Virus record (IMG/VR): IMGVR_UViG_3300030693_000012
DNA: 64,000 nt
Origin: a virus
Reading direction: 5' to 3' (one strand)
Part shown: one piece after another, positions 3,891-59,949 of the stretch
Layout: every line of letters starts with the position of its first letter
How positions within the stretch are numbered: the first letter of the stretch is position 1
The notes under the pieces: model-generated
What the model saw: only the letters and a program-made list of their open reading frames with translations
Databases searched by the model: none
Told to the model about the DNA's origin: nothing
Position numbers and translations under genes: made by a program

Positions 3891-5324
3891 TCACAAACCG
3901 GTTTGTCCAAGCTTCGCCCACACCGCGCTCGATCCCCGGCGCTTGATGAGGCCGTCGAGCATGTAGCGCACCGCATCCGGGACGTGGTTGTTCTTGTCGA
4001 TGATGTCTGGCAGGATCTCGCTGGTCACCCGGTCCTCCGCATACCGATACAGGCCGAACTCCTCCGCCGCGTGAGGGCAGTTCGTCTTGTGAATGTGGAT
4101 CATAATGAAGCCGCGCAGGTGAGCGATGCCGTCCTCGACCGAGCCAGACCACTTCTCGGCCGCCGTGATGTTGATGCCCTTGTTCTTGACGTAGCTGATG
4201 AGCTCTGGCCGGGCAGAGTCAGCCTTCACCGGCCACTGGCGGTAGGTCGGAACCTTCTCGAAGGCGAACTTGTGGCCGCCAGGCAGCGTGTCGCCCGGCT
4301 TCGGCGCCACCATCTCGTTGATCTCGACGCCCACTCCCCAGCTCTCCGCATCCAGCCAGAGGTGTTCGCCAGCCATGCACTCTTTCCCGCCATAGATTCC
4401 GGCGCTCTCGGTCGTCACATAGCCGCGGATCATCACCAGGGGATCGTTGCTGAAGCCCCAGTCGACGCCATGGTAGAAGCGGGGCTTGTCGGGACTGGCG
4501 AAGTTCTCCAGCACATACTTGTGGCGGAAGATGACGGCGTGAGCGTGCTGCTTGATCTTGCCGTCCCACACATGCTCGGCGCTCTCTGGGTCAGTCGCGA
4601 AGAGATGGTCCTTGGCCGCCAGCAGCTCCTTGCTGATCCAGTGGTTCTCCCGCCAGTTCAGCTCCACCCTGACGCAATCGTCGGGCGGCGCGACGTGGAA
4701 CTTCTGGTATGTGGCGTCGTCCTCATTGCAGAGGTTGTACGTGATCCAGATTTCGGAGCCAGCCTTGCGAATGGTGGGGATGAGGACTTCCCAGGTGTCC
4801 TTGCCGATCGACTCCGCCTCTTCCACCCAGCAGATATCGACGCCCTCGAAGCTCTTGATCTTGGTGCGATTGCTTTTCTGCCCCAGGTCGCCCAGCCCCA
4901 TGAATAGGAACTCGGAGCCATTCGAGGAGTAGATGTGGCCCTTGGTGACTTTGAACCACGGCTCGAGACCGAGCGACTTGATCTGGTCGTGCAGGAGCTT
5001 GTGCACCGAGTCGGCGATGGAGGTCTGGTACTCGCGGGCGCAGAGAATCCGAACCTTCTTCTGCAGGCTTAGGACGATGAGCGCGCGGGCGACGGCCCAC
5101 GACTTCATCCCACCGCGGCCGCCCTCCATCACCTTGAAGCGGTGGGGGACGAACAGGAATTCGAACTTCTCATGGAAGTGGAGCGTCCACTGGCCTTCGT
5201 TCGGGATGGCGAAGCCGCCGTAGTGGAGCAGAACGTCGGTCCGCTTCACATATCCGCCGGCACGCTGGAAGGCCCCACTGACGTCAAGCGGCTTCGGCTG
5301 CTCCTCTGGGCTATCTGGGATCAC
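3891..5324 (-). CDS. terL: Terminase large subunit (PBSX-type)
   Basis: Walker A GGRGGMKS, Walker B WVEEAE, nuclease motifs GVDWGFSND and NNHVPDAVRY. Confidence 0.95.
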   Translation of the reverse strand: MIPDSPEEQPKPLDVSGAFQRAGGYVKRTDVLLHYGGFAIPNEGQWTLHFHEKFEFLFVPHRFKVMEGGRGGMKSWAVARALIVLSLQKKVRILCAREYQTSIADSVHKLLHDQIKSLGLEPWFKVTKGHIYSSNGSEFLFMGLGDLGQKSNRTKIKSFEGVDICWVEEAESIGKDTWEVLIPTIRKAGSEIWITYNLCNEDDATYQKFHVAPPDDCVRVELNWRENHWISKELLAAKDHLFATDPESAEHVWDGKIKQHAHAVIFRHKYVLENFASPDKPRFYHGVDWGFSNDPLVMIRGYVTTESAGIYGGKECMAGEHLWLDAESWGVGVEINEMVAPKPGDTLPGGHKFAFEKVPTYRQWPVKADSARPELISYVKNKGINITAAEKWSGSVEDGIAHLRGFIMIHIHKTNCPHAAEEFGLYRYAEDRVTSEILPDIIDKNNHVPDAVRYMLDGLIKRRGSSAVWAKLGQTGL

Positions 5325-6680: not shown

Positions 6681-7289
6681 TCATATCACTACCGTCGCTT
6701 CCGGCCAGTCGGCCTTGAACTCGTCCACCCGGTCCTTCGGGATGTAGCCGATCGTCTCACCCAGGCGCACGCAGACCATATCGTCCGGCGCTCCTCCGAT
6801 GAATTTGATCGTGAACCTTGGCACGTCCTCGCGCTCCTGAAGCGCCAGCTCCTCCGCCGAGACGGCCCGCGCCCGCTGCTCCATCTCCATCCCCATCCGG
6901 GCCACCGCCACAGCCTGCCCCACTGGAAGCTTCTTGATCTCCTCCGCGCTCATAGACATGAACCGAGCAGCCGCGCGCGCCGTCATGTTCATCCCCTGCC
7001 GCGCCTGCCGCTCCCGCATTTCAGCCGTTCCCACCACCACGCGGTTCGTGATCTCACGAGCCATCATCCGGTCATACGCCAGGATCCGGTACTGCCAGCG
7101 GTCGCGCGCGCTGAACTTCTCCATTAGTTGCCGTGACTTGCCGCCCGGGTATTCAGGGCTAACCAACAGCTCCCCCACCTTAGCAAGCGAGCGGGTGGCC
7201 CCCATTTCGAGGTAAGCGGTGAAAGCCTCGTAGGCTTCTTGGCTCTCTCCGTCTTGGCGTTCCCACGGCTTTGCTTCCTCTGAGGACAT
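6681..7289 (-). CDS. terS: Probable terminase small subunit
   Basis: N-terminal KPWERQDGESQEAYEAFTAYLEMGATRSLAKV HTH-like motif typical of small terminases; upstream of terL. Confidence 0.65.
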   Translation of the reverse strand: MSSEEAKPWERQDGESQEAYEAFTAYLEMGATRSLAKVGELLVSPEYPGGKSRQLMEKFSARDRWQYRILAYDRMMAREITNRVVVGTAEMRERQARQGMNMTARAAARFMSMSAEEIKKLPVGQAVAVARMGMEMEQRARAVSAEELALQEREDVPRFTIKFIGGAPDDMVCVRLGETIGYIPKDRVDEFKADWPEATVVI

Positions 7290-7736: not shown

Positions 7737-8216
7737 TGATCTCCGGATTCAGCCGCGGAACGAGCCGGGCGATGGATGGAGCTGGACGCTGGAACTCCCG
7801 CTTGGCGAGGATGCGCTCCTGCTCTTTGCGGCGGCGGAGCCGTTCAGCCAAAGCGGTGTAGACGCCATAAGCGTTCGCAGCCCGTCGATCGAGGGTGAGA
7901 TAGGTCTTCTGCGCCTTGGCGACCATCTCCTCTAGCTGAGTAGTAGTCCTCTTAGCCACGGGTGTAAGCCCTGCCCAGCTTGCGGTGACGGCGGCGAAGG
8001 CGCCAGGCGAGCACCTTCCGAGCGAGGACTTGCTTGAGTCCGACCGGCGGCGCGAGGTCAGCGACCATGGCCTCATCGCACCAGATCGATGCGGTGTCCG
8101 ATACCACCTCGAAGACGCCATCCTCGTTCGGCGGGAGCGCGATGCCCACCATACCGAAGAAGCCGGCGGCGTTCTTGTTGGGGATCGAGACGATTTGGAC
8201 GAAGCGGTCCTTCGGG

Positions 8217-8666
8217 TTAGGAGCGAGAAAGGTGTTCAAGGTGAATCCTCCGTCTTCGATTTGAGATGGGTCGCGGCCAGGCTGGGGACAGAAGATCCCG
8301 CAGTGGTGTCCGAGAGGCTGCTTGCATCGCTGGCACTTCGTTCGATAGTCGATCGCGGTCTCCGATCCGTATTGAGAGGCTTGCATCTGATTCTCCGGGC
8401 ATGCGGCATAGGGCGTAGATTGCGGCGAATTTGTCGAGCTGACTGCTCGGAATCCAGATCTGATCGGGAATTGCTTCATAGTTCGCCCACGTCCCGGTCA
8501 GCGCGGCGCTCACGTCGTACATGATCTCGGCGGGGGTCTTACTCCTCCAGAGACCGCCGGGCGTGCTCTGCGTCCAGCCGCCAGCGGGCGCGAGGAAGTG
8601 AACCGGGTTGGTGGTGGCCGCGACAGCGCCGGCTGCGAACATCTTGAGGAAACCACGACGATTCAT
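8217..8666 (-). CDS. Tat-signal protein containing a major-capsid-like segment
   Basis: MNRRGFLKMFAAGAVAA twin-arginine motif; residues 40-76 align with this phage's capsid protein. Confidence 0.65.
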   Translation of the reverse strand: MNRRGFLKMFAAGAVAATTNPVHFLAPAGGWTQSTPGGLWRSKTPAEIMYDVSAALTGTWANYEAIPDQIWIPSSQLDKFAAIYALCRMPGESDASLSIRIGDRDRLSNEVPAMQAASRTPLRDLLSPAWPRPISNRRRRIHLEHLSRS

Positions 8667-8757
8667 GGACGCCAGCCTCTCGGAGTGCGCTTCAGCGCCA
8701 GGAAGCGCGTCGTGAAGAAGCCACGATGAAACCGGCCACGAAATCGGAACTTGTCTC

Positions 8758-9180
8758 TCATGCCGCCAACCTCATCGCTATCTTGGACCTCTGCTCAGGA
8801 GTGAAACGCTGAAGGATGATTCTTACACGAAAGTCGTCGTCGCACTCCCACGGCCCACGATTTACCCCTTGGCGAGCGCCCTGCTTATCCAGCAGCTCCC
8901 CGCAAACGAGTCCCGACTGGTAGGGGCTTCCGAGGATGATGGTGAGCTGGAGCCGCGCGCGAAGCGACTGGTCGGACTCGAGGCCAACATCGCCCACCGG
9001 CTCTCTCCGGCGAATCCCATGAGCCGCCGCCAACTCGTCTAGCTGGCGGCCAGCGGCTCCCTGCCACCGCGGCTCCGCCTTGACGGCGACGCAGTGACAC
9101 GACCCTCCGCAGGTGCCGCAGAGCTCGATCAATTCCGGCTCGCTTTCTCGGCGGCCTGCACGCGACGGCACGCGGGGCAC
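8758..9180 (-). CDS. Hypothetical protein with two LDxxAxxxGxxRxxxExD repeats
   Basis: LDELAAAHGIRRRE...ESDQSLRARL and LLDKQGARQGVNRGPWECDDDFRVRI. Confidence 0.55.
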   Translation of the reverse strand: MPRVPSRAGRRESEPELIELCGTCGGSCHCVAVKAEPRWQGAAGRQLDELAAAHGIRRREPVGDVGLESDQSLRARLQLTIILGSPYQSGLVCGELLDKQGARQGVNRGPWECDDDFRVRIILQRFTPEQRSKIAMRLAA

Positions 9181-9404
9181 GGGTCAGAAGAGGTGCAGGG
9201 ACGGGGAGCGTCCAGCCTAATATCCGAGGAAGTGTCCTCCACGGTCATCTCGTCGCCGCCAGTCACCTGCACCTTGCGGCCACTCAGCTCCCCGCTTCTG
9301 GCCTTCTCCCAGACCAAAGTGATAGCCTTGGTCACTTCCTCAAGGATGTCTTCGAGGGCTTTTTCTCGATGTCGTAAATCTCCAGCGCCAACCGGCTCAT
9401 ACAC
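9129..9404 (-). CDS. Hypothetical protein
   Basis: 91-aa ORF coupled to the upstream gene. Confidence 0.45.
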   Translation of the reverse strand: MYEPVGAGDLRHREKALEDILEEVTKAITLVWEKARSGELSGRKVQVTGGDEMTVEDTSSDIRLDAPRPCTSSDPCPACRRVQAAEKASRN

Positions 9405-10107
9405 TCTCCACTCTCGGCATCTCGCCGTCCATCAAACCCTTCAGCCGAATCGCCTCTGCGCGCTTGGCCTTCAGCGCCTCCAGGTCGAGGAGATGCTGGT
9501 ACTCCCGCCCAGCCTTCGATCCCTTCAGCGGTGTGGTCGTGCTGCCGATGATCCCGCAGACGCCGCAGCGGTGCAGCTTTGACTGGTGCCGGAAGATGCC
9601 GTCGCAGATATGGGGTCTATCCGTCGCAGAAGGCGGCCCGAAGCGTCCGGCGTCACCCAGGGAATCCTTACCAATCCCACAGCGCCCGAAGAGGCAGCGG
9701 CACATAGGAGCGCCTTTGACGCGGCCCTCCTGAACTTCCTTGCGTAGCTCCAAATACTCATCGACCACCTGCACTGTCTCTTCCATTTCACTCTCCCTCC
9801 GGCGAATCCCATGCGCCAACGCCAACTCGTCCATTTCGCTAGGATTCCGGATTCCGGAATCTGCCTTGATGAACTTTCCCACCCAGTCGCCTATTCGAAC
9901 AGTGGCAATGAGGCAACCTTCGCGGGTCTCTTTCGTAACTTGAGCGTCTGGATATGCCGCTTGCAGAGCGGCAAGGATCCGTTCCTGCCTCCCTGACTTG
10001 CCATAACCACGACAGCCCCAGTGCATGCGCAAAACTCGCGGCGAGTCGAGGGGCCAAATAAGCCTCTCTGCATCGTCGCGAGTCGGTGTGTTATCAGCCA
10101 TTTGCAA
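9397..10107 (-). CDS. Hypothetical Cys-rich protein
   Basis: 236 aa; contains MDELALAHGIRRRE and several Cys pairs. Confidence 0.55.
   Translation of the reverse strand: MQMADNTPTRDDAERLIWPLDSPRVLRMHWGCRGYGKSGRQERILAALQAAYPDAQVTKETREGCLIATVRIGDWVGKFIKADSGIRNPSEMDELALAHGIRRRESEMEETVQVVDEYLELRKEVQEGRVKGAPMCRCLFGRCGIGKDSLGDAGRFGPPSATDRPHICDGIFRHQSKLHRCGVCGIIGSTTTPLKGSKAGREYQHLLDLEALKAKRAEAIRLKGLMDGEMPRVESV
9843..9861. repeat. 19-bp palindrome GATTCCGGAWTCCGGAATC, copy 1
   Basis: Exact match, inside a CDS. Confidence 0.9.
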
Positions 10108-29076: not shown

Positions 29077-29426
29077 GCTGCTCCTCTCATCTGCAAGGCC
29101 TTCCGAAGAAGCGCCTCGAAATCGCTATCGTCTACATGGTGGTGGTTCACCGCGACCTGCACGGCACGCTTTGAATCTGCCTTCGAGTAGCCCAGCCCGA
29201 TCATCGCCAGGATCACATCCGCCCGCTGCGACCGGCGGGGATAGTCCGGCGGGCGCGGTGGCGGTTCCAACTCATGCCTCGGCTCGATCTTGAGCCCCAT
29301 CACCAGGTACCGCATCCGGCGCTTGAGGCTCTTGTTCTGCTGCATCGCAATGATGAGCAGGAAGAAGAAGACGAGGTTGCTTGCGATTAGCCAGGGGATC
29401 ATTTCGCACGCTCGCATTTCCGGCAC
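29073..29426 (-). CDS. Membrane-anchored protein with a RuvA C-terminal-like domain
   Basis: N-terminal TM helix; DVILAMIGLGYSKADSKRAV...FEALLRKALQ. Confidence 0.75.
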   Translation of the reverse strand: MPEMRACEMIPWLIASNLVFFFLLIIAMQQNKSLKRRMRYLVMGLKIEPRHELEPPPRPPDYPRRSQRADVILAMIGLGYSKADSKRAVQVAVNHHHVDDSDFEALLRKALQMRGAA

Positions 29427-30424
29427 TTCCGCCAGCCGCGCGAATTCACCCGACCATACTCAGCGAACGAGTGTCCTTTGCTGCAATGGGTTTTCCGAGC
29501 GTTGTGATGCTCCGACCCCTTGCGGTAGTTAGTCAGACGGCCCTTAGTCACTGCGTCAACGACGTTATCTCGCTGGCTCCCCCTGAAGAGATGATCTGGG
29601 CGGCAGCACGGCGGGTTATCGCAAGAATGGCAAACCTTCACACCTTCGGGAGCTCCGGCTTTCTTGAAGACGACCCCTTCCGCGTGCGCCTCGGTGAACC
29701 GCTGGAGGGCTGCCTCTTTGTTGGCGGTGCCAGTAAAGGTCCTGACCATGTGGAGGCCGACCGGCGTTGTGTCGCGGACGATGAATCGGGAGAGCGCCAG
29801 GCGGCGCTGGTAGCGCGGGAGGTTCTGAATCTCTATGCCGTCCATCATCAGGATGTCGAAGGCAACGTAGCTCCCTTTGACGAACTCGCCGTCGAGATGA
29901 ACCTGCTGCCCAGCCAACTCGGCCAACTCGCGGGTGGGAACCGGAATTATCTCGCCCTTGCGATTGAAGGCGTAGACCAATGTTCCATCCGCGAGGATAG
30001 AGATGCGGTGGCCGTCCAGCTTCTCCTCCAGCTCCCAGCCGTCATTGACGACATACTCGCCGGCTTGATCCGGTCCGATCGGAGCCAGCAGCTCAGGGAA
30101 GAAGGTGGGGGCGAAGCCAGGAACTGTCGGGTCGGGGATGAATGCCGCGCCGACCGGATGGCCTTGAACGCCTTCCAGCTCGTAGACGCCGCCGCAGCAG
30201 TCGCACTTTTTGCCGGTCTTCTCATCGACGAGCTTGTCGAAGATTTTCCGGGCAACTTCGTAGGTCGTAGTGGTGGGGGTTTTAGTTCCAGCCCTAAGCG
30301 GTGCGCCGATGGCCCCATATTGAAAGTCAACCGACCACAGCCCGTCATGCTCCTGAAGCTGAACGTTGTAGGATTTCTGGTGGCGATCATTCCGAAGTAC
30401 GAGCGAACAACTCAAAGGCTCCAT
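29399..30424 (-). CDS. WGR domain + ATP-dependent ligase adenylation domain fused to an HNH endonuclease C-terminal fragment
   Basis: DFQYGAIG (WGR); EEKLDGHR, LDGE, AFDIL, EGVVFKK (ligase); then VCHSCDNPPCCRPDHL...KTHCSKGH. Confidence 0.8.
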   Translation of the reverse strand: MEPLSCSLVLRNDRHQKSYNVQLQEHDGLWSVDFQYGAIGAPLRAGTKTPTTTTYEVARKIFDKLVDEKTGKKCDCCGGVYELEGVQGHPVGAAFIPDPTVPGFAPTFFPELLAPIGPDQAGEYVVNDGWELEEKLDGHRISILADGTLVYAFNRKGEIIPVPTRELAELAGQQVHLDGEFVKGSYVAFDILMMDGIEIQNLPRYQRRLALSRFIVRDTTPVGLHMVRTFTGTANKEAALQRFTEAHAEGVVFKKAGAPEGVKVCHSCDNPPCCRPDHLFRGSQRDNVVDAVTKGRLTNYRKGSEHHNARKTHCSKGHSFAEYGRVNSRGWRKCRKCERAK

Positions 30425-36954: not shown

Positions 36955-39864
36955 TCAGAAGCTGACGTGCCCACCGGCATTCGCGCCGAAGTGAACGCCC
37001 TGCGGAGCGGGAGTGCCGAGGGTGATATTCCCTGTCCCGGTCGCCGCGAAGGTCAGCACCCCGGCGGTGTCCGAGGTGGCGCTAGAGGGCGCGCCAGTCC
37101 CCGCGACTGTGTAGACGGTGTTGGGCGTGAGATCGGAGACATACTGCGTCGTCGCCCCCGAGGCTGGGTAGGTCACCCCGGTAAAGGTAGCTGGCCACGC
37201 ACGCATGAAGCAAACCATCGACGCGCCAACCTTGCCGCAATCGAAGTTCTGGCCTCCGGTAGACTGCACCAGCGTCGTCGAGCTCTGCGTCAGGCTTGAT
37301 GTTCCCCATTCCATCACAGATAGAAACTTGGAGTTGGTAGCTACCGACGACGGGTTCACTTCGAGCGACGTATACGGCTCCCAATCAGCAGCCTGATCTG
37401 AGCTTCCAGACGTCAATCCAGCATTGGTAATGGTCGCCCCGGACGGCAGTAGGCTGGTGAAATATGCCTTCTGCGAACTGGACCGAGTGAGCCAGCTTGC
37501 CACGCTTCCAGAGATGGTCGGGTTTCCCGTCGTCATCAGATAAAGCTGCTTCGTCCAAGTGTTCGTGGTCGAGTCGCCACGGTCGTAATAGACAACCTGA
37601 TTCGATCCGCGCAGATAGATCAGCGACCGGGACGCGGTGATGCCAGAAGATAAATAGCCGAAGCCTCCATAAGTCGATCCATTGTAGGCATTGGATTGAT
37701 CGATGATTGCAGCCACATAGGTTGGCAGCTCGCTGTGCAGCAGTGTGATAAGTCCTTGCTGATAGGAGTGCCAGAACTGGCCTCCGTACTGCGCGGCATA
37801 CCCTTGCTCGCAACTATTCGCAACTGTGCAACTGGTTTGCGTTGGATTGTTCTGGAGGGCCACCAGGTTCTGCTGCGGAGCTGTCGTCATCTGATCGTTG
37901 TAGTCATTGAATTCAGCGCGGCCCTTGGTGATGTACTCGCCGTCAGAGTAAATATCGAACCGCCCATCGAACTCATGCTCATGGTCGATGGCCGTATTGG
38001 GCGCGTAGTAAGAAAACAGCGTTCCGCCCGATGTCCAGTTATTGCGCACCACGATGTGCTGGTTTCCAGCGTCGTACAGGTCGGTGGGCAGGGAAGGCCG
38101 TGGATCGGCTGGCAGACTGGCAAGCGGATCGGTAGCGGGTTGGGTGATAAACAAATCAGGAAGTACATCTTGTGCGTAGGTATTCGTTGTTTCGTTATTC
38201 CAGCCTGCGTAAAAGCAAGCCGAAGGGCATCCGTAGGATGTTCCAAGTGGGCCGCCAAAAGCGGTATTCAGTATTGTCCACAGCATTGCCGAATCGCCCT
38301 CAGTCCTCCCTATATAAGAGTTTCCCAACATTGTGGCCGATTGCGTGACAAAGTTGGATGGATATTTGTAGTAAGTAAGCTCGTCCCCCGTATTCAAGAA
38401 GTTAGTCGATCCCTGTATAACGGCTCCGCCTGCCGTGGTGAGGATGGGGCCAGTCAAAGATGCAAGATCGGTGATGTAGCGCAAGTCCCAGTAACTCGAC
38501 GAGGCAAGGCTCATCTGCGGCCCATAGGCAATCGGATCGAGATAGCCAGCCGTGTATGCGGCGTCGAGCGCCCACTTCAGCTTAGAAATTGATCCTCCAT
38601 AGCTGTTGCCCTCACTTGGCTCTCCGCCACGTCCAAGACCAAAGCAAGGAGTTTTCGTTCCCAGCGGTGCCCATGTGCTGTCGCAACTTGGCACGGTCGA
38701 AAGGTTCGCGTAAGCGGTCTGGTATGCCTGCCACGTCACGTTCGGGTCTTCCATGTCGGCCCAGTCTTTGTACATCATGCCTCCCGTGAAATACGTCCAG
38801 TAGGCATGTAGGGAACCAGCCGTCCCATCGGGACAGACCTGATAACGCGTGGCTGAACAGGTGTTCGTCAGCGGGGGATCGTCTGTCGTGTTGTCATTGA
38901 ATGTCAGGGCGTCGGCCACCAGATAAAGCATCTTGCTCTGGGTGTAGTTGTTTCCCATCGCCCGCTGATTTGTATAGTCAAACTCGTTCCCCGTATCGAA
39001 CTGCGAGGAACTGTTGTAGTTACCGATCACCGCAAGCGTTCCATTGCCGCTGTTGGTGACAGTAAACTTTGCAAAGGCCGCCAGAAATTCCCGCGCCTGG
39101 ATCAAGTCTGTTGAGTTTAGATATCCCCCCGCCATCAGCCAATCTGGAGTGAGCGTAAATGCTTTCGCACTGTCCGACCAGTGGTTTCCTCCATAGGCGC
39201 TCGGGTTCGCGATGAACTGATCCATCATGTAAGTAAAAATGTCGCGTCCCGCGCAACCCCATTGGTAACTAGGATCAGAAGGATCAATCATCGACATAAA
39301 GGCAAAGAGATTGGCGTCCCCTTCTTTGTAGCTTTGCGACTGGTCCGAGGAGGGGCCGCTTCCACCCACGCAGGCCGATCCATTCCATGTGCTGAAAGTC
39401 CAAATGCCAGAGTCTGTCGTGTACAAGTTGACGGCCGCGGTACGCAGCGCCTGGTAAAGCGTGTTGCCACTCGTCGCCTTAGCTCGCAAACCGGGCAACA
39501 TCGCCGCCGTTACCAGCAGCCGCGGGTGGCTCGTCGCCGGAGTTGGAGACCCCGTGAACGTTACGGTCGAGGTTGCCGTAACCGAGCCGACGTTGGTGGT
39601 AGCAGTCAGGGTGTCGGTCTCAGCAGTTGTGTCGTAGAGCGCGATGGTACAAGGCTCGTTCACTACGCAAGGATTGGTGCCAACCAGCGTCCCGGTCCCG
39701 CTCGTGATCGACCAGGTGACGGTCTTGTTGTTCACACCCTGCACGACGGCTGTGACGGTCTGATAAGTGCCGATGGGGGCGATGGCGACGGTGGGATACA
39801 CCGAAAGCGTCTGCGCCCATACATGGGCCGAGCACAGCAGTGCGAAGGTAAGTAGGCGTCTCAT
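36955..39864 (-). CDS. Exported Ig-like + heparinase II/III-type polysaccharide lyase-like protein
   Basis: Signal MRRLLTFALLCSAHVWA|Q; Ig-like VNNKTVTWS; HPRLL; DHEHEFDGRFDIY motif. Confidence 0.7.
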   Translation of the reverse strand: MRRLLTFALLCSAHVWAQTLSVYPTVAIAPIGTYQTVTAVVQGVNNKTVTWSITSGTGTLVGTNPCVVNEPCTIALYDTTAETDTLTATTNVGSVTATSTVTFTGSPTPATSHPRLLVTAAMLPGLRAKATSGNTLYQALRTAAVNLYTTDSGIWTFSTWNGSACVGGSGPSSDQSQSYKEGDANLFAFMSMIDPSDPSYQWGCAGRDIFTYMMDQFIANPSAYGGNHWSDSAKAFTLTPDWLMAGGYLNSTDLIQAREFLAAFAKFTVTNSGNGTLAVIGNYNSSSQFDTGNEFDYTNQRAMGNNYTQSKMLYLVADALTFNDNTTDDPPLTNTCSATRYQVCPDGTAGSLHAYWTYFTGGMMYKDWADMEDPNVTWQAYQTAYANLSTVPSCDSTWAPLGTKTPCFGLGRGGEPSEGNSYGGSISKLKWALDAAYTAGYLDPIAYGPQMSLASSSYWDLRYITDLASLTGPILTTAGGAVIQGSTNFLNTGDELTYYKYPSNFVTQSATMLGNSYIGRTEGDSAMLWTILNTAFGGPLGTSYGCPSACFYAGWNNETTNTYAQDVLPDLFITQPATDPLASLPADPRPSLPTDLYDAGNQHIVVRNNWTSGGTLFSYYAPNTAIDHEHEFDGRFDIYSDGEYITKGRAEFNDYNDQMTTAPQQNLVALQNNPTQTSCTVANSCEQGYAAQYGGQFWHSYQQGLITLLHSELPTYVAAIIDQSNAYNGSTYGGFGYLSSGITASRSLIYLRGSNQVVYYDRGDSTTNTWTKQLYLMTTGNPTISGSVASWLTRSSSQKAYFTSLLPSGATITNAGLTSGSSDQAADWEPYTSLEVNPSSVATNSKFLSVMEWGTSSLTQSSTTLVQSTGGQNFDCGKVGASMVCFMRAWPATFTGVTYPASGATTQYVSDLTPNTVYTVAGTGAPSSATSDTAGVLTFAATGTGNITLGTPAPQGVHFGANAGGHVSF

Positions 39865-42167
39865 TAGAATGACCAGTGACAACCGGATGTAGAACCGAGT
39901 GCGTTAGGCACGTCTGTTATTGCAAAATCTCCAGCGGTCGCCGTTGCTGGAATCACCAAGCCGGTGGTCGAGTGGTCCGTACCGTTGATCGGCTGCGTCG
40001 AGTTGAAATTCTTCAACGTGATCACTTGGCTGGTTTGATTGTTGATCGTGTAGACGGCCCCCGACTGACCGACGCATGAGGGAAGAGTCAAAGTTTCCCC
40101 GGCGGAAGCCTGCGTAAGTTCAATGTAGCCATCCGACGCGAGCATTTGATATGCGGTGGTGGTCACCGGAGCATTGGTGACAGTCATAGTTAGCCCAACG
40201 TTTTCACCGGAAAAAGCGGTGTATGTTTGTGCTCCCGAAGGCAAGGTGCTTTGACCGGTGAGATAATACAGCGGCGTGCCGCCCCCAAGTCCCGGACCCG
40301 TTGCAGTCACCCATACCACAGGAAACTCACCGGCAACCGCATTCAGTGGTGCCGTGAATCCAACACCCGCAACAAAGGTCTGATTGCCGGATGTCGCAGT
40401 AGGTGTCACGGTGAATGAAGAACCCGGAACGATTGTAAATGTTGGTGCTGTTCCGGTCGCATACGCGAGAGTGATTGGAGTGGTTGTTGGCGCTGCATTG
40501 AATCCCAAGGTGATTGAACTTAGTGGCCCTGAGATAAGTGGAGAGGGAACCACAATCGCCCAGTTCGCTGGCATATTATTGTTGTACGAACCTGGTATTG
40601 ACCCGGCGGTGCCAACAGCACCCGCCACCGTTTGGACAATGGCGTTCGGATTGCTCTTGTTATACCCGAAGTAATATTCCATCGAGTTCCACGCATCGGC
40701 CTGCATGAGCAAATAGCCAGCATTTTGCAGATGGACGAAATCAGACTGATAATAAGTCCCGTTGGTGTTACACGATGAACATCCGAGATAGGGGTCGGCT
40801 GCGAAGTCGAGGATTCCTGCTGCTCCCCACGCCTTCCAGTTTTGCCGAATAAGGTTGTCCAGAGCGATTTGATTTGCGTTCCATGTCAAACCGTTGGGCG
40901 GAGCCGGTGAGCTGCCTCGACTTATCATCGTACCCACGAAAACCTTGCACCCGGCTTGCGTGAGTAGCTGAATTTGATTTGCTAAATACCCCGCTACATT
41001 CGCCGCGGTGGCTGTCGAATAATTAGAAAAATTATTTGTTCCATCGAAGACTGTTGCTATCTGTGGGCCTTGATTGGAGGAACAGTTAGGGGCGGCGCTA
41101 CCGGCGTTTGTGGACATGATGTAGTCAGCCGTTTTCCCCGCATTGCCGAGGTTTGTTACAAGCCCAAATGTAGGAACAGGCGCAGGTGGTTGATTCACCC
41201 AACAATCACCCGGAACAGTACCGTAAAGGCAGTAAGTGAGCGAGTCCCCATAGGCATACCAATTAGGCCCTATGGAGTTCCATTGGACGCCTATACTCCC
41301 TGCTCCTCTCGCCTGAATATCAGAACTTGAGGCTGCATATTCCTGAGCAACTTGAGCCGCCGTCAGTTCTGTAGACCATCCAATAAATTCGTACTCAGTG
41401 ACAATTGACGCTGAATTTAGGCCGCACGATTGGCATGCTCCTAATATCCAGTTCCCCGACAGTTGAGTTCCCGCGCTATACCCGCGATTGGTGTACGGCG
41501 TCACTTCCACTCCGTCAAAATAAAAGTGATCGTAGTCACTGCCGCTGGTTCCAAAAGTAACGATGACAACGTGGTTGCCCGAAGACAGGTTCACGGGGGA
41601 AGTGGTCGTATCAGCACCGTACTTCCACAGTGCCAGGCCGGGCGTAGTAGACCAATTGTTGCCTCCAACCGAGCTGATCCACGCACTCAAGAATATCCAG
41701 GGGCCGTTGTTTGTGGCTCCGCTAGTGCTGGGTGTCAAAACTGCCGCTTCGGCTCCACTACCGGACGAACCCGTTATAGGGATGTTGATTACAAACTCGA
41801 AAGTCCGCAGATTGTTGACGGAGGTTGGAAGAGGCGCACATCTAGCGTTGTCGGGAAAGAACAACCCAACTAGGGTGGACTGTGGGGCATTCGCACCTGT
41901 GCATAGAGTGGCGTTATTTCCGTTACCGCTAGAATCCGTTATGGTCGTGCCACTGATGAATTGAGGAAGCATGTTCAGAAAAATCTCGGCGCCTGAGATA
42001 TGCTGCGATGTGTTCGCGATCAAGCACGTTGATTCTGACAGGCAAGGGTTGCTGTTGATCGTCGTAGTGGTAGATACGTGCGCCGTCTGCCCATTGATCG
42101 TTGATTGACCGAGTGCGGGTAACGCGAATACCAGAGGCAGCGCGAGAATAAAATTACGGAGTGACAT
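39864..42167 (-). CDS. Exported LamG/lectin-like + SGNH esterase protein
   Basis: Signal MSLRNFILALPLVFALPALG|Q; DSSGNGNNAT LamG-type start; SGNH blocks GDSLT, GNAG, DGTNN, DFVH. Confidence 0.75.
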   Translation of the reverse strand: MSLRNFILALPLVFALPALGQSTINGQTAHVSTTTTINSNPCLSESTCLIANTSQHISGAEIFLNMLPQFISGTTITDSSGNGNNATLCTGANAPQSTLVGLFFPDNARCAPLPTSVNNLRTFEFVINIPITGSSGSGAEAAVLTPSTSGATNNGPWIFLSAWISSVGGNNWSTTPGLALWKYGADTTTSPVNLSSGNHVVIVTFGTSGSDYDHFYFDGVEVTPYTNRGYSAGTQLSGNWILGACQSCGLNSASIVTEYEFIGWSTELTAAQVAQEYAASSSDIQARGAGSIGVQWNSIGPNWYAYGDSLTYCLYGTVPGDCWVNQPPAPVPTFGLVTNLGNAGKTADYIMSTNAGSAAPNCSSNQGPQIATVFDGTNNFSNYSTATAANVAGYLANQIQLLTQAGCKVFVGTMISRGSSPAPPNGLTWNANQIALDNLIRQNWKAWGAAGILDFAADPYLGCSSCNTNGTYYQSDFVHLQNAGYLLMQADAWNSMEYYFGYNKSNPNAIVQTVAGAVGTAGSIPGSYNNNMPANWAIVVPSPLISGPLSSITLGFNAAPTTTPITLAYATGTAPTFTIVPGSSFTVTPTATSGNQTFVAGVGFTAPLNAVAGEFPVVWVTATGPGLGGGTPLYYLTGQSTLPSGAQTYTAFSGENVGLTMTVTNAPVTTTAYQMLASDGYIELTQASAGETLTLPSCVGQSGAVYTINNQTSQVITLKNFNSTQPINGTDHSTTGLVIPATATAGDFAITDVPNALGSTSGCHWSF

Positions 42168-58053: not shown

Positions 58054-58821
58054 TCAAGCCTTAGCCTCCCTGACGCGCCGCGCAACCTGACCCGCCTTCA
58101 TCTTCAATCGTGTCTCTTCTGATACCGCATGCCCCTTTAGCGCGGCCGACACTTTCGCGCGCGACTCGGCGGATTTATTACGAAGAGTCAACGATGCCAC
58201 AATCTTCGCTTTCGTATCTGGGGATAGGACGTGACCCACCTTCACATGATGACGCCCTTCCGCGACCCGCCGTAAAGCTGCCTCCTTCATCTTCTGCCTC
58301 GTCTCGGGGCTCTTCGGTTTGCCCTTGTTTAGATTGCCATAAGTATTCCCTTTTAGCCGGTCGGACATCCCAGCAGGAACGCGGCCTCTGATCTTTGCAC
58401 CAATCTTCGCTTTCGTCTCTTCGGAGTGCGGGATTCCGGCGCGGCGCGCGTTGCCAACAAGCCCGGCGCTGATTTTAGCCGAAATTCTATCGCGCAACTC
58501 TTGGGTCATATCCCGCTGGCCGTCGCCGCCTGCCGTTTGATTTACGAGAGGGCCAAGAGGTTCTCGACCAATCTCCGCAATCGTTCTGATCTCTAGAGCC
58601 ACGGCCTCATCCCTCGTTAGGCCTTCAGCCAGCTTTACCTTGGGAATCGACACGCCGCTTTCCAGCATCCCGCGAATGATTCGGCTCCGGTGGCTATCGC
58701 GCTCCTTGCTTTTGCAAGACCGCTCGTGATCGAGCCAGCGATTGCCCTTGCCAAACCCGACATAGAAAGGCGTGCCGTCTTCACGACTCAAGATATAGAC
58801 ATAGTAGATGTTTGCGGACAT
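58054..58821 (-). CDS. GIY-YIG-type homing endonuclease with NUMOD3 repeats
   Basis: YYVYIL...PFYVGFG...R; repeats HSEETKAKIG, KSPETRQKM, VSEETRLKM. Confidence 0.85.
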   Translation of the reverse strand: MSANIYYVYILSREDGTPFYVGFGKGNRWLDHERSCKSKERDSHRSRIIRGMLESGVSIPKVKLAEGLTRDEAVALEIRTIAEIGREPLGPLVNQTAGGDGQRDMTQELRDRISAKISAGLVGNARRAGIPHSEETKAKIGAKIRGRVPAGMSDRLKGNTYGNLNKGKPKSPETRQKMKEAALRRVAEGRHHVKVGHVLSPDTKAKIVASLTLRNKSAESRAKVSAALKGHAVSEETRLKMKAGQVARRVREAKA

Positions 58822-58878: not shown

Positions 58879-59949
58879 CTACAACCCATCAAAGTAGCCG
58901 ACCGTTTCTGGGTAAGGCATCTCGACAACGCCGAGCTTGCAGTAGTAGGTCGTGAGGTGATAAAGCCCACGATACTCGACCGGGGTGCGCTGCAGCATGG
59001 TCTTGGGGAAGCGCACGAACCGCTTGTCCTTGGTGTAGACCGTTGCGCGGTCCACAGTTCCGGTCGTGCCGATCGTGCCGCCCACACCTGCGCCAACTGC
59101 CCACTTGGTGGAGCGGATGGAGAGCCGTCCCTTGCCGTCCGCGGTGAGGAGGTTGTTCTCCTCGATATACCGCTTGATCGACATAAGGCCAGAAGCCGTC
59201 GCCACCTTCGCCGTCGCGATGTAGCCGTACTGCGCGGGCGGGATGAGGATGTCGGTCGGGATGACTGCCCAGGCGGAAGCGGCCCAAACGGTCGTCAGCA
59301 TGAAATTGAAGTCGTTCAGGATCTCGTCGGGGGACTTGCTCGCCCAGGTGGTGCCACCCTGCGCGCCCTGCGGGAGATTCGTGACCGTGGAGACCTTGCT
59401 GTTGTTCAACAGGCCGGTATAGCCGAAGCCGGTGTCGCCGATGTAGACCTGCTCATCGGTGTCCATCTCGTGTTTGCGGCTCATCGCCTCGAACTTCTGC
59501 TGGTCGATCGGACGACCGATCTTGGCAGACGCTTCGATCTCGGGGATCGTATAGCCCAGCTCGTTGGCCCAGAGGGTCAGCGGGTTGGCGATCTTCGCGA
59601 TGTCCAGCGAGACGCCGGCAATCTGGTTGGCGTTCTTGCCAGCCCAGCTCTTGCCGTTGCCGATACCCTGTCCTGCACCGAGGCCGCCGTTCGAGAAGAA
59701 CGTCGAGAGGGTGTAGGAGCTGGCGTCGTCCGCAATCGACACGTCCTCACGGGTGTCGATGTCGCGCGACCACTTGATATCGATGAGGGGCATGTTCAGC
59801 GTCATGTCGAGACGCTCCAGCTCTCCGAGGAAGAACGCGCCGGTGGAGTCCACGTAACGGCCGTCATGCGTCTGGGTCTTCTGGCCCAGCGGCTTGCCGA
59901 GTGCGTTGCCGTTGCTGTCGATTGTGCGCTGGCTGTCGAAGGTGAGCAT
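58879..59949 (-). CDS. Major capsid protein (DUF2184-like)
   Basis: 356 aa; FFLGELERLD, QVYIGD...GLLN, WASKSPDEILND, YPETVGYFDG. Confidence 0.9.
   Translation of the reverse strand: MLTFDSQRTIDSNGNALGKPLGQKTQTHDGRYVDSTGAFFLGELERLDMTLNMPLIDIKWSRDIDTREDVSIADDASSYTLSTFFSNGGLGAGQGIGNGKSWAGKNANQIAGVSLDIAKIANPLTLWANELGYTIPEIEASAKIGRPIDQQKFEAMSRKHEMDTDEQVYIGDTGFGYTGLLNNSKVSTVTNLPQGAQGGTTWASKSPDEILNDFNFMLTTVWAASAWAVIPTDILIPPAQYGYIATAKVATASGLMSIKRYIEENNLLTADGKGRLSIRSTKWAVGAGVGGTIGTTGTVDRATVYTKDKRFVRFPKTMLQRTPVEYRGLYHLTTYYCKLGVVEMPYPETVGYFDGL

Follow-up and report, generated by a model that had tools for sequence, protein, structure and literature searches.

Does a short open reading frame of a soil phage join an export signal to a piece of the phage's own shell protein and, if so, what could such a protein do? 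The question is raised by the ORF at 8217-8666 of a 64,000-nt viral DNA (IMG/VR record IMGVR_UViG_3300030693_000012; this whole stretch is referred to here as the window), for which the original prediction was a chimeric gene with a twin-arginine (Tat) signal followed by a copy of part of the resident major capsid protein. The window belongs to an uncultured soil phage, an E217/Pam3-like myophage, with hits to Terminase_3, Phage_portal_3, the scaffold-like DUF2213, Phage_cement, the sheath family DUF3383 and E217_GP41, and no integrase was detected among the window ORFs scanned. The ORF, called here the leader gene, has small orphan genes for neighbors and precedes the small terminase gene by about 1 kb (Table 1), and no sigma-70 promoter or intrinsic terminator was found around it. 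Some other genes of this phage are unusual in their own right. A GIY-YIG/NUMOD3 homing-endonuclease-like gene (58054-58821, minus strand; NUMOD3 3e-13, LEM-3_GIY-YIG 1e-5) lies directly downstream of the major capsid gene. The product of 29399-30424 (minus strand) resembles ATP-dependent DNA/RNA ligases; its N-terminus is WGR-like and a weak match to HNH_3 follows right after the ligase domain, an unusual combination. In the tail/baseplate region, a 767-aa product (39864-42167, minus strand) gives a sub-threshold match to GDSL lipases/acylhydrolases (E 1e-6) and may be a tail fiber with a deacetylase or esterase domain.

Table 1. Coordinates, in the window, of the leader gene, its parts and the genes with which it is compared.
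Feature	Position	Strand	Basis or remark
Leader gene ORF	8217..8666	-	149 aa
Shine-Dalgarno-like GAGAGG	8676..8681	-	9 nt 5' of ATG, read from sequence
Tat-type leader, residues 1-31	8574..8666	-	TIGR01409, dN/dS
Capsid-like piece, residues 36-81 (W..KTP.EI..D....L...W ... P..I.IP..Q)	8424..8561	-	BLASTP, PF09950, hhalign
Module LD..(4)..R.PGESD..L.IRI, residues 76-105	8352..8441	-	module profile
Run-on tail, codons 106-149 and stop, over the next gene	8217..8351	-	codon-position substitutions
Upstream neighbor, 140 aa, leaderless, LD...ESD..LR.R module twice	8758..9180	-	hmmsearch
Downstream overlapping gene, 144 aa, Cys/His motifs CxxC...HHCxxxC	7952..8386	-	own ATG, GGAG 6 nt upstream
Small terminase	6681..7289		
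Major capsid protein, 356 aa, PF09950 (HK97 fold), Pam3 gp7-like	58879..59949	-	PF09950 1.2e-68, phrog_264 2.5e-69
Capsid segment homologous to the mini-protein, capsid residues 198-243	59221..59358	-	hhalign

Since the window has a G+C content of 61% and many spurious ORFs, coding of the leader gene was tested directly. In a GC3 frame plot the leader frame appears coding from 8666 to about 8400, with a switch near 8390 to the +1 frame, and the frame that takes over after about 8400 is that of ORF 7952..8479. Substitutions were counted by codon position, and dN/dS was computed by the Nei-Gojobori method, between the leader gene of the window and a relative of 76% identity, L001, recovered from a peat metagenome. 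Codons 1-105 differ at 36 third positions and at 14 and 12 of the other positions, whereas all 16 changes in codons 106-149 fall on positions 1 and 2 of the leader frame. The dN/dS ratio is 0.17 over codons 1-105, with values of 0.04 in the leader segment, 0.24 in the capsid-like piece and 0.07 in codons 82-105. Over the tail codons 106-149 the leader frame has a dS of 0 and a dN of 0.24, and the +1 frame a dN of 0 and a dS of 1.7; the stop of the leader ORF lies at another position in L001. The identical protein was found on more than 17 metagenome contigs and the 76% relative on 14, and GAGG or GGAG is also present 8-10 nt 5' of the relatives in L001 and in a further contig, L006. The ORF is a genuine gene as far as codons 1-105 (8352..8666), which are under purifying selection and specify a product of about 105 aa (the mini-protein), and its original extent has to be shortened accordingly, because codons 106-149 are an unconstrained run-on that evolves freely across the next gene.

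This next gene, downstream of and overlapping the leader gene, has a product without Pfam or PHROG match. Its first ~30 codons are constrained, the protein being identical in the window and L001 despite a dS of 1.7, and it starts at different codons in the two lineages, preceded by GGAG in both. An Rz/Rz1-type spanin pair was considered for the overlapping genes and rejected: the +1-frame product starts MQASQYG, without signal or lipobox, and the overlap is absent from other family members.

The N-terminus had been taken for a canonical twin-arginine signal, which is borne out by NCBIfam model TIGR01409, passed at 20.4 bits, the curated cut-off lying at 16.7; the Pfam TAT_signal model (PF10518) gives an E-value of 0.003 and 18.1 bits, below its gathering score of 22.7. 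The protein begins MNRRGFLK, in which N-R-R-G-F-L-K is set against the Tat consensus S/T/N-R-R-x-F-L-K, and the leader comprises an MN n-region, the RRxFLK motif, an h-region of Ala, Gly and Thr and then P-V-H-F-L-A-P-A-G-G-W. With the signals described by TIGR01409 and PF10518 it has in common N/D-R-R-x-F-L-K/R at residues 2-8 and a weakly hydrophobic, Ala/Gly-rich h-region; as in Tat signals, a basic residue often follows the leader in family members. The Tat signal of E. coli CueO, which begins MQRRDFLK, is likewise short. Across 53 relatives, conservation reaches at least 90% at R3, R4, F6, G30 and W31, and the median uncharged run is 22 residues long. The family departs from ordinary Tat signals at the end of the leader, where the conservation of P-x-[HY]-F-[LF]-A-P-x-G-G-W goes far beyond that of a usual Tat c-region and a consistent A-x-A site is lacking. 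A candidate signal-peptidase site, x-G-G↓W, has Gly at position -1 in 53 of 53 members; at position -3 a small or aliphatic residue is present in only 36 of the 53, and Pro, Arg or Lys in 16. The leader could be an uncleaved anchor, and one relative weakly resembles the PetC Rieske anchor (E 0.011). In contrast to usual Tat substrates, the cargo is a 70-aa mosaic of virion-protein pieces and no cofactor enzyme. From these sequence features, the mini-protein is probably targeted to the Tat pathway.

Behind the leader, residues 40-76 (8439..8549) had been aligned by eye with residues 202-240 of the capsid protein (59230..59346); these coordinates are exact and the similarity is significant. BLASTP aligns mini-protein residues 37-81 with capsid residues 199-245 (19/47 identical, E 2e-6), and the Smith-Waterman score of 78 was reached by none of 5000 shuffles (30.8 +/- 5.0; Gumbel p 3e-6). 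Residues 1-105 match Pfam PF09950 with an E-value of 3.8e-6 and 26.9 bits (gathering score 26.8), the match covering only profile positions 102-147 of 251, and hhalign aligns the family profile with the capsid profile over 44 columns at a probability of 98.4% and an E-value of 1e-14. Judged by these sequence and profile comparisons, mini-protein residues 36-81 are homologous to capsid residues 198-243. Homology does not extend past the 44 columns: greedy hhalign aligns P-T-Y-F-L-A-P with capsid V-Y-I-G-D, and the ESD..LR module with capsid S-I-K-R-Y-I, both at a posterior of zero. A frameshifted capsid pseudogene was also rejected, as tblastn of the other frames around the ORF matches the 47-residue stretch only.

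The nearest solved relative of the resident capsid is Pam3 gp7, 8HDT (PMC9942802; match to 8hdt_A at 7e-18). In an AF2 model of the resident capsid, helix 150-169 (the spine helix) is followed by helix 207-224, strand 233-236 and helix 238-246, with a pLDDT of 82-86 over the homologous part. On this model the homologous segment, made up of helix 207-224, the strand and the beginning of the helix after it, is read as the start of the A-domain, a name which we take from textbook HK97 topology rather than from a superposition. The piece keeps the most conserved residues of the capsid family, and two conserved positions of its helix, Y50 and S53, deviate from the family consensus. Hence a Tat-type leader is indeed joined to a capsid-homologous segment, although not to a recent copy: at 40% identity to the resident capsid the piece is, by sequence divergence, old, and by eye it looks closer to other PF09950 capsids. 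Compared with PF09950 capsids such as Pam3 gp7 and its E217-like relatives, the mini-protein keeps the helix-strand unit of capsid residues 198-243, that is, 44 of about 250 profile columns, without the N-arm, E-loop, P-domain or A-domain sheet. Its own AF2 model (mean pLDDT 69) has a leader helix, a disordered linker and three short helices at 45-61 (pLDDT 81-86), 74-87 and 94-103, so that a complete HK97 fold is absent; Foldseek of this model against the PDB gave no match, and the ESM Atlas only sub-threshold leads. The mini-protein is no capsid protein and cannot form a shell, nor can a 44-residue piece fold as an A-domain.

The remainder of the constrained product, residues 76-105, is a third module, LD...R.PGESD..L.IRI, which recurs in about ten family members. 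It matches no structural protein of the window. It may resemble a motif of baseplate-J proteins, a lead for which the Baseplate_J match is non-significant and confined to one member (E 0.28). Within the window, hmmsearch with the module profile finds a single product, that of the leaderless upstream neighbor (8758..9180), at an E-value of 7.6e-10. This gene and a further leaderless gene upstream (9397-10107, minus strand) both have short modules in common with the leader gene, and between the two the motif LD.LA..HGIRRRE is 80% identical over 15 aa. In L001 the stop of the upstream gene overlaps the ATG of the leader gene in an ATGA coupling (4253-4256), and in the window about 90 extra non-coding bases (8667-8757) separate the two. 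The shared modules suggest that the upstream genes and the leader gene form a small cluster of module-exchanging mosaic genes.

To look for the fusion elsewhere, 1.8 billion representatives were searched exhaustively with a profile at E <= 1e-3. The search returned 58 hits, about 53 of which are metagenomic proteins of 80-170 aa that share the N-terminus; the family comprises more than 50 clusters and carries no annotation. Its leader, MNRRxFL[KR] followed by an h-region and P-x-[HY]-F-[LF]-A-P-x-G-G-W, is contained in the first ~40 residues, P-x-x-G-W occurs in 53 of the 58 members, and the median position of the Trp is 31. PF09950 is matched independently by 21 of 53 relatives, TIGR01409 by 26 and Pfam TAT_signal by 20, and the capsid family phrog_264 by 16; beyond these, the members fall under no family of Pfam, PHROG or NCBIfam. 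About half of them carry a cargo without recognizable source, and a subgroup marked by SDVIxNP has no homology to the capsid. In L006 the leader has been kept, with many synonymous changes, before an entirely different cargo. The same fusion is therefore found in more than 50 relatives, so that the ORF is neither unique nor unconserved, as had to be asked of the original prediction. Sequence comparison indicates that the fusion is of old standing and widespread as the design of a family, and we are highly confident of the architecture and of the family membership of the leader gene.

Searches by tblastn with three members (P0001, P0052 and P0015) in 50,697 cultured-phage records, among them E217-, Magia- and ZHS-like relatives with a capsid of this family, returned true capsids only and no family member; pattern-based scans of IMG/VR and of GTDB species genomes, which reach close relatives only, so that their silence counts for little, gave no relatives, and a metagenome scan gave one further short locus. 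No neighbor gene is conserved, and genome positions vary, members being found among early/nucleotide-metabolism genes, beside an Acb2/Tad1-like gene or between head genes. In one contig (L016, 9060-10309, plus strand) three Tat-type leader genes lie within 1.3 kb, each with a different cargo: one divergent, one with TYSFKDV and an LD...ETD..LR.RI module, and one with the capsid helix. The absence of a conserved neighbor, the variable positions and these three leader genes give the family an accessory character. In L006 (193-1472, plus strand), the member P0004, with a terminase-like cargo, ends an operon with an HD-domain gene and an Acb2/Tad1-hairpin gene, the latter resembling anti-CBASS/anti-Thoeris sponges, and the operon converges on the terminase gene; this arrangement hints at an anti-defense neighborhood.

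The cargoes of a few members were compared with the virion proteins of the phages that carry them. Like the window, the 65-kb contig of member P0045 encodes a PF09950 capsid, and the P0045 cargo matches this capsid of its own phage (BLASTP 4e-4, shuffle p 5e-4). Member P0063, with the same leader, lies between the terminase and a P22-type portal; here the cargo (residues 42-94) matches residues 3-60, the N-arm, of the phage's own P22-type coat protein, which belongs to another capsid family than PF09950 (BLASTP 6e-8, phmmer 1e-7, shuffle p 6e-8). P0004, P0036 and P0007 share a cargo type that is similar to the first motif of the nuclease domain in the L006 large terminase, which is encoded beside P0004 (P0036 BLASTP 3.7e-5; hhalign profile 4.4e-4; shuffle p 8.5e-5 and 1e-3), moderate evidence at the sequence level for a terminase-derived cargo. 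A subgroup of the capsid-type members ends in F-x-x-Q-L-E-x-L-D...P-L, which aligns to the capsid N-arm, residues 35-57 (hhalign E 1.6e-4), a piece that stands out of capsid order. The Gly/Asn-rich linker of some members gives, against capsid G-x-G-N-G-K-S-W, a non-significant profile E-value of 0.066 and weak secondary phmmer matches. Sequence matches thus show the cargo following the morphogenesis proteins of the resident phage, namely a PF09950 capsid, a P22-type coat and, less securely, a terminase, on three or four contigs and with a bias towards proteins conserved enough to be recognized.

A conserved leader whose cargo is drawn from the phage's particular capsid family, with the most conserved residues kept, is what leads us to consider the piece a mimic. 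The leader would direct the mini-protein to TatBC, the receptor in the inner membrane, where it would be exported or anchored in a Rieske-like manner, and the capsid-like piece, by imitating a conserved motif of the capsid, would titrate, block or mislocalize whatever recognizes that motif. The target could be the assembly partners of co-infecting related phages, in which case the mini-protein would interfere with assembly, or a host factor that senses the capsid protein, for which it would be a decoy. The decoy and dominant-negative roles first proposed gain some indirect support from the finding that in unrelated phages this leader is joined to parts of the resident coat protein or terminase. 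Phage proteins that block assembly are an established class, as exemplified by Tab (PMC10884400) and Tai (PMC11364771). Several points speak against the mimic. Capsid protein, terminase and the capsid sensors known so far reside in the cytoplasm, and a mimic that really reached the periplasm would be cut off from them; with such targets it must act before or instead of translocation. The piece has only 44 residues, with the deviations at Y50 and S53, the cargo of about half the family is without recognizable source, and the terminase match is moderate. We accordingly favor a membrane- or Tat-targeted mimic as a tentative reading of the sequences, held with somewhat less than even confidence.

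The most serious competitor, though in our view rather unlikely, is an exported or inner-membrane-anchored envelope effector, active in superinfection exclusion or envelope modification, in which the Tat leader would have its ordinary role, the mature 70-aa helical domain would act in the periplasm and the capsid helix would be recycled material without any link to the capsid. Phages commonly encode small exclusion proteins of the membrane or periplasm. A Tat signal above a curated threshold, a small size, an accessory position without conserved partner and the small helical domain suggested by AF2 all fit such a role, as does a variable cargo behind a conserved leader, which is expected for secreted proteins under diversifying pressure. 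What it leaves unexplained is the match to a P22-type coat and the probable match to a terminase in unrelated phages, as well as the retention of the capsid's most conserved residues.

The mimic can also be framed more broadly, as a portable, near-invariant Tat-type leader cassette that several unrelated lineages of tailed phages have fused to signature pieces of their own capsid or terminase, and whose products would be membrane- or Tat-directed decoys. Such decoys would capture a factor that recognizes capsid or terminase, which would be sequestered at the membrane or removed from the cytoplasm by Tat "hitch-hiking". Capsid and terminase are proteins acted on by bacterial pattern-recognition defenses, rival phages and satellites. 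In this general form, extended from sequence comparison to several lineages, we consider the reading unlikely.

A role in the phage's own head assembly, in which the leader would tether the protein to the membrane or TatBC and the piece would dock on capsid or scaffold, thereby localizing or timing procapsid assembly, could account for pieces derived from the resident capsid type and for members placed between Mu F-like and scaffold genes (P0045) or between terminase and portal (P0063). We regard it as improbable, as the cultured-phage records, same-capsid-family relatives included, hold no member, which argues against an essential assembly factor, and both the variable position and the several copies in some phages count against it. 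Still more remote is a programmed +1 frameshift near 8352-8390 that would fuse leader and capsid piece to the Cys/His domain of the downstream gene: selection does leave the leader frame for the +1 frame with no stop in between, but the downstream frame has its own start and GGAG in both lineages, at different codons, the zero frame contains neither a stop nor a known shifty site, and other members end normally at 80-130 aa without this neighbor. Least credible of all is a functionless decaying chimeric remnant or chance ORF, for which the 44 unconstrained codons running into the next gene and the many spurious ORFs of a GC-rich genome could be cited, given the strong purifying selection on codons 1-105 and the more than 50 diverged relatives that keep both leader and piece.

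If the design is what it seems, phages have time and again assembled tiny genes out of signature fragments of their own virion-building proteins, under a common export-type address label, which would reveal an unrecognized layer of phage biology, be it capsid and terminase mimicry in counter-defense and phage competition or a link between host Tat and virion assembly; the decoys of the broader reading would amount to a new class of counter-defense or inter-phage weapon. The family is also a clear example of how fragments of essential genes give rise to new genes. For annotation, such ORFs are at present "hypothetical" or carry a weak capsid hit, which could mislead automated capsid calling. 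The parts, a Tat signal and an HK97-fold capsid, are known. Their combination, in which one conserved export-type leader is joined serially to fragments of morphogenesis proteins from the phage itself, was found neither in Pfam, PHROGs or NCBIfam nor in the papers searched on phage Tat signals and HK97-fold fragments.

Among characterized systems, Tab of Pseudomonas phage JBD26 (PMC10884400) and the Tai systems (PMC11364771) target tail assembly. As small accessory phage or prophage proteins acting on the structural proteins of other phages, they work as the mimic would, a functional analogy only, since they are not built from fragments of their targets and are not reported to carry a Tat leader. 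In the case of the Gol region of T4 gp23 and the Lit protease of prophage e14, a short internal capsid stretch can by itself be the ligand of a host defense. Gol is thus a precedent for a short capsid stretch as ligand, although it lies within the full-length capsid protein rather than in a separate gene, has no export leader and belongs to another capsid family than PF09950. The family 4 "A-domain" encapsulins are truncated HK97-fold proteins encoded beside enzymes in archaeal and Bacteroidota genomes. They too are stand-alone, A-domain-derived proteins of the HK97 fold, but they keep a whole, foldable A-domain, whereas the mini-protein keeps one helix-strand unit behind an export-type leader, in phages.
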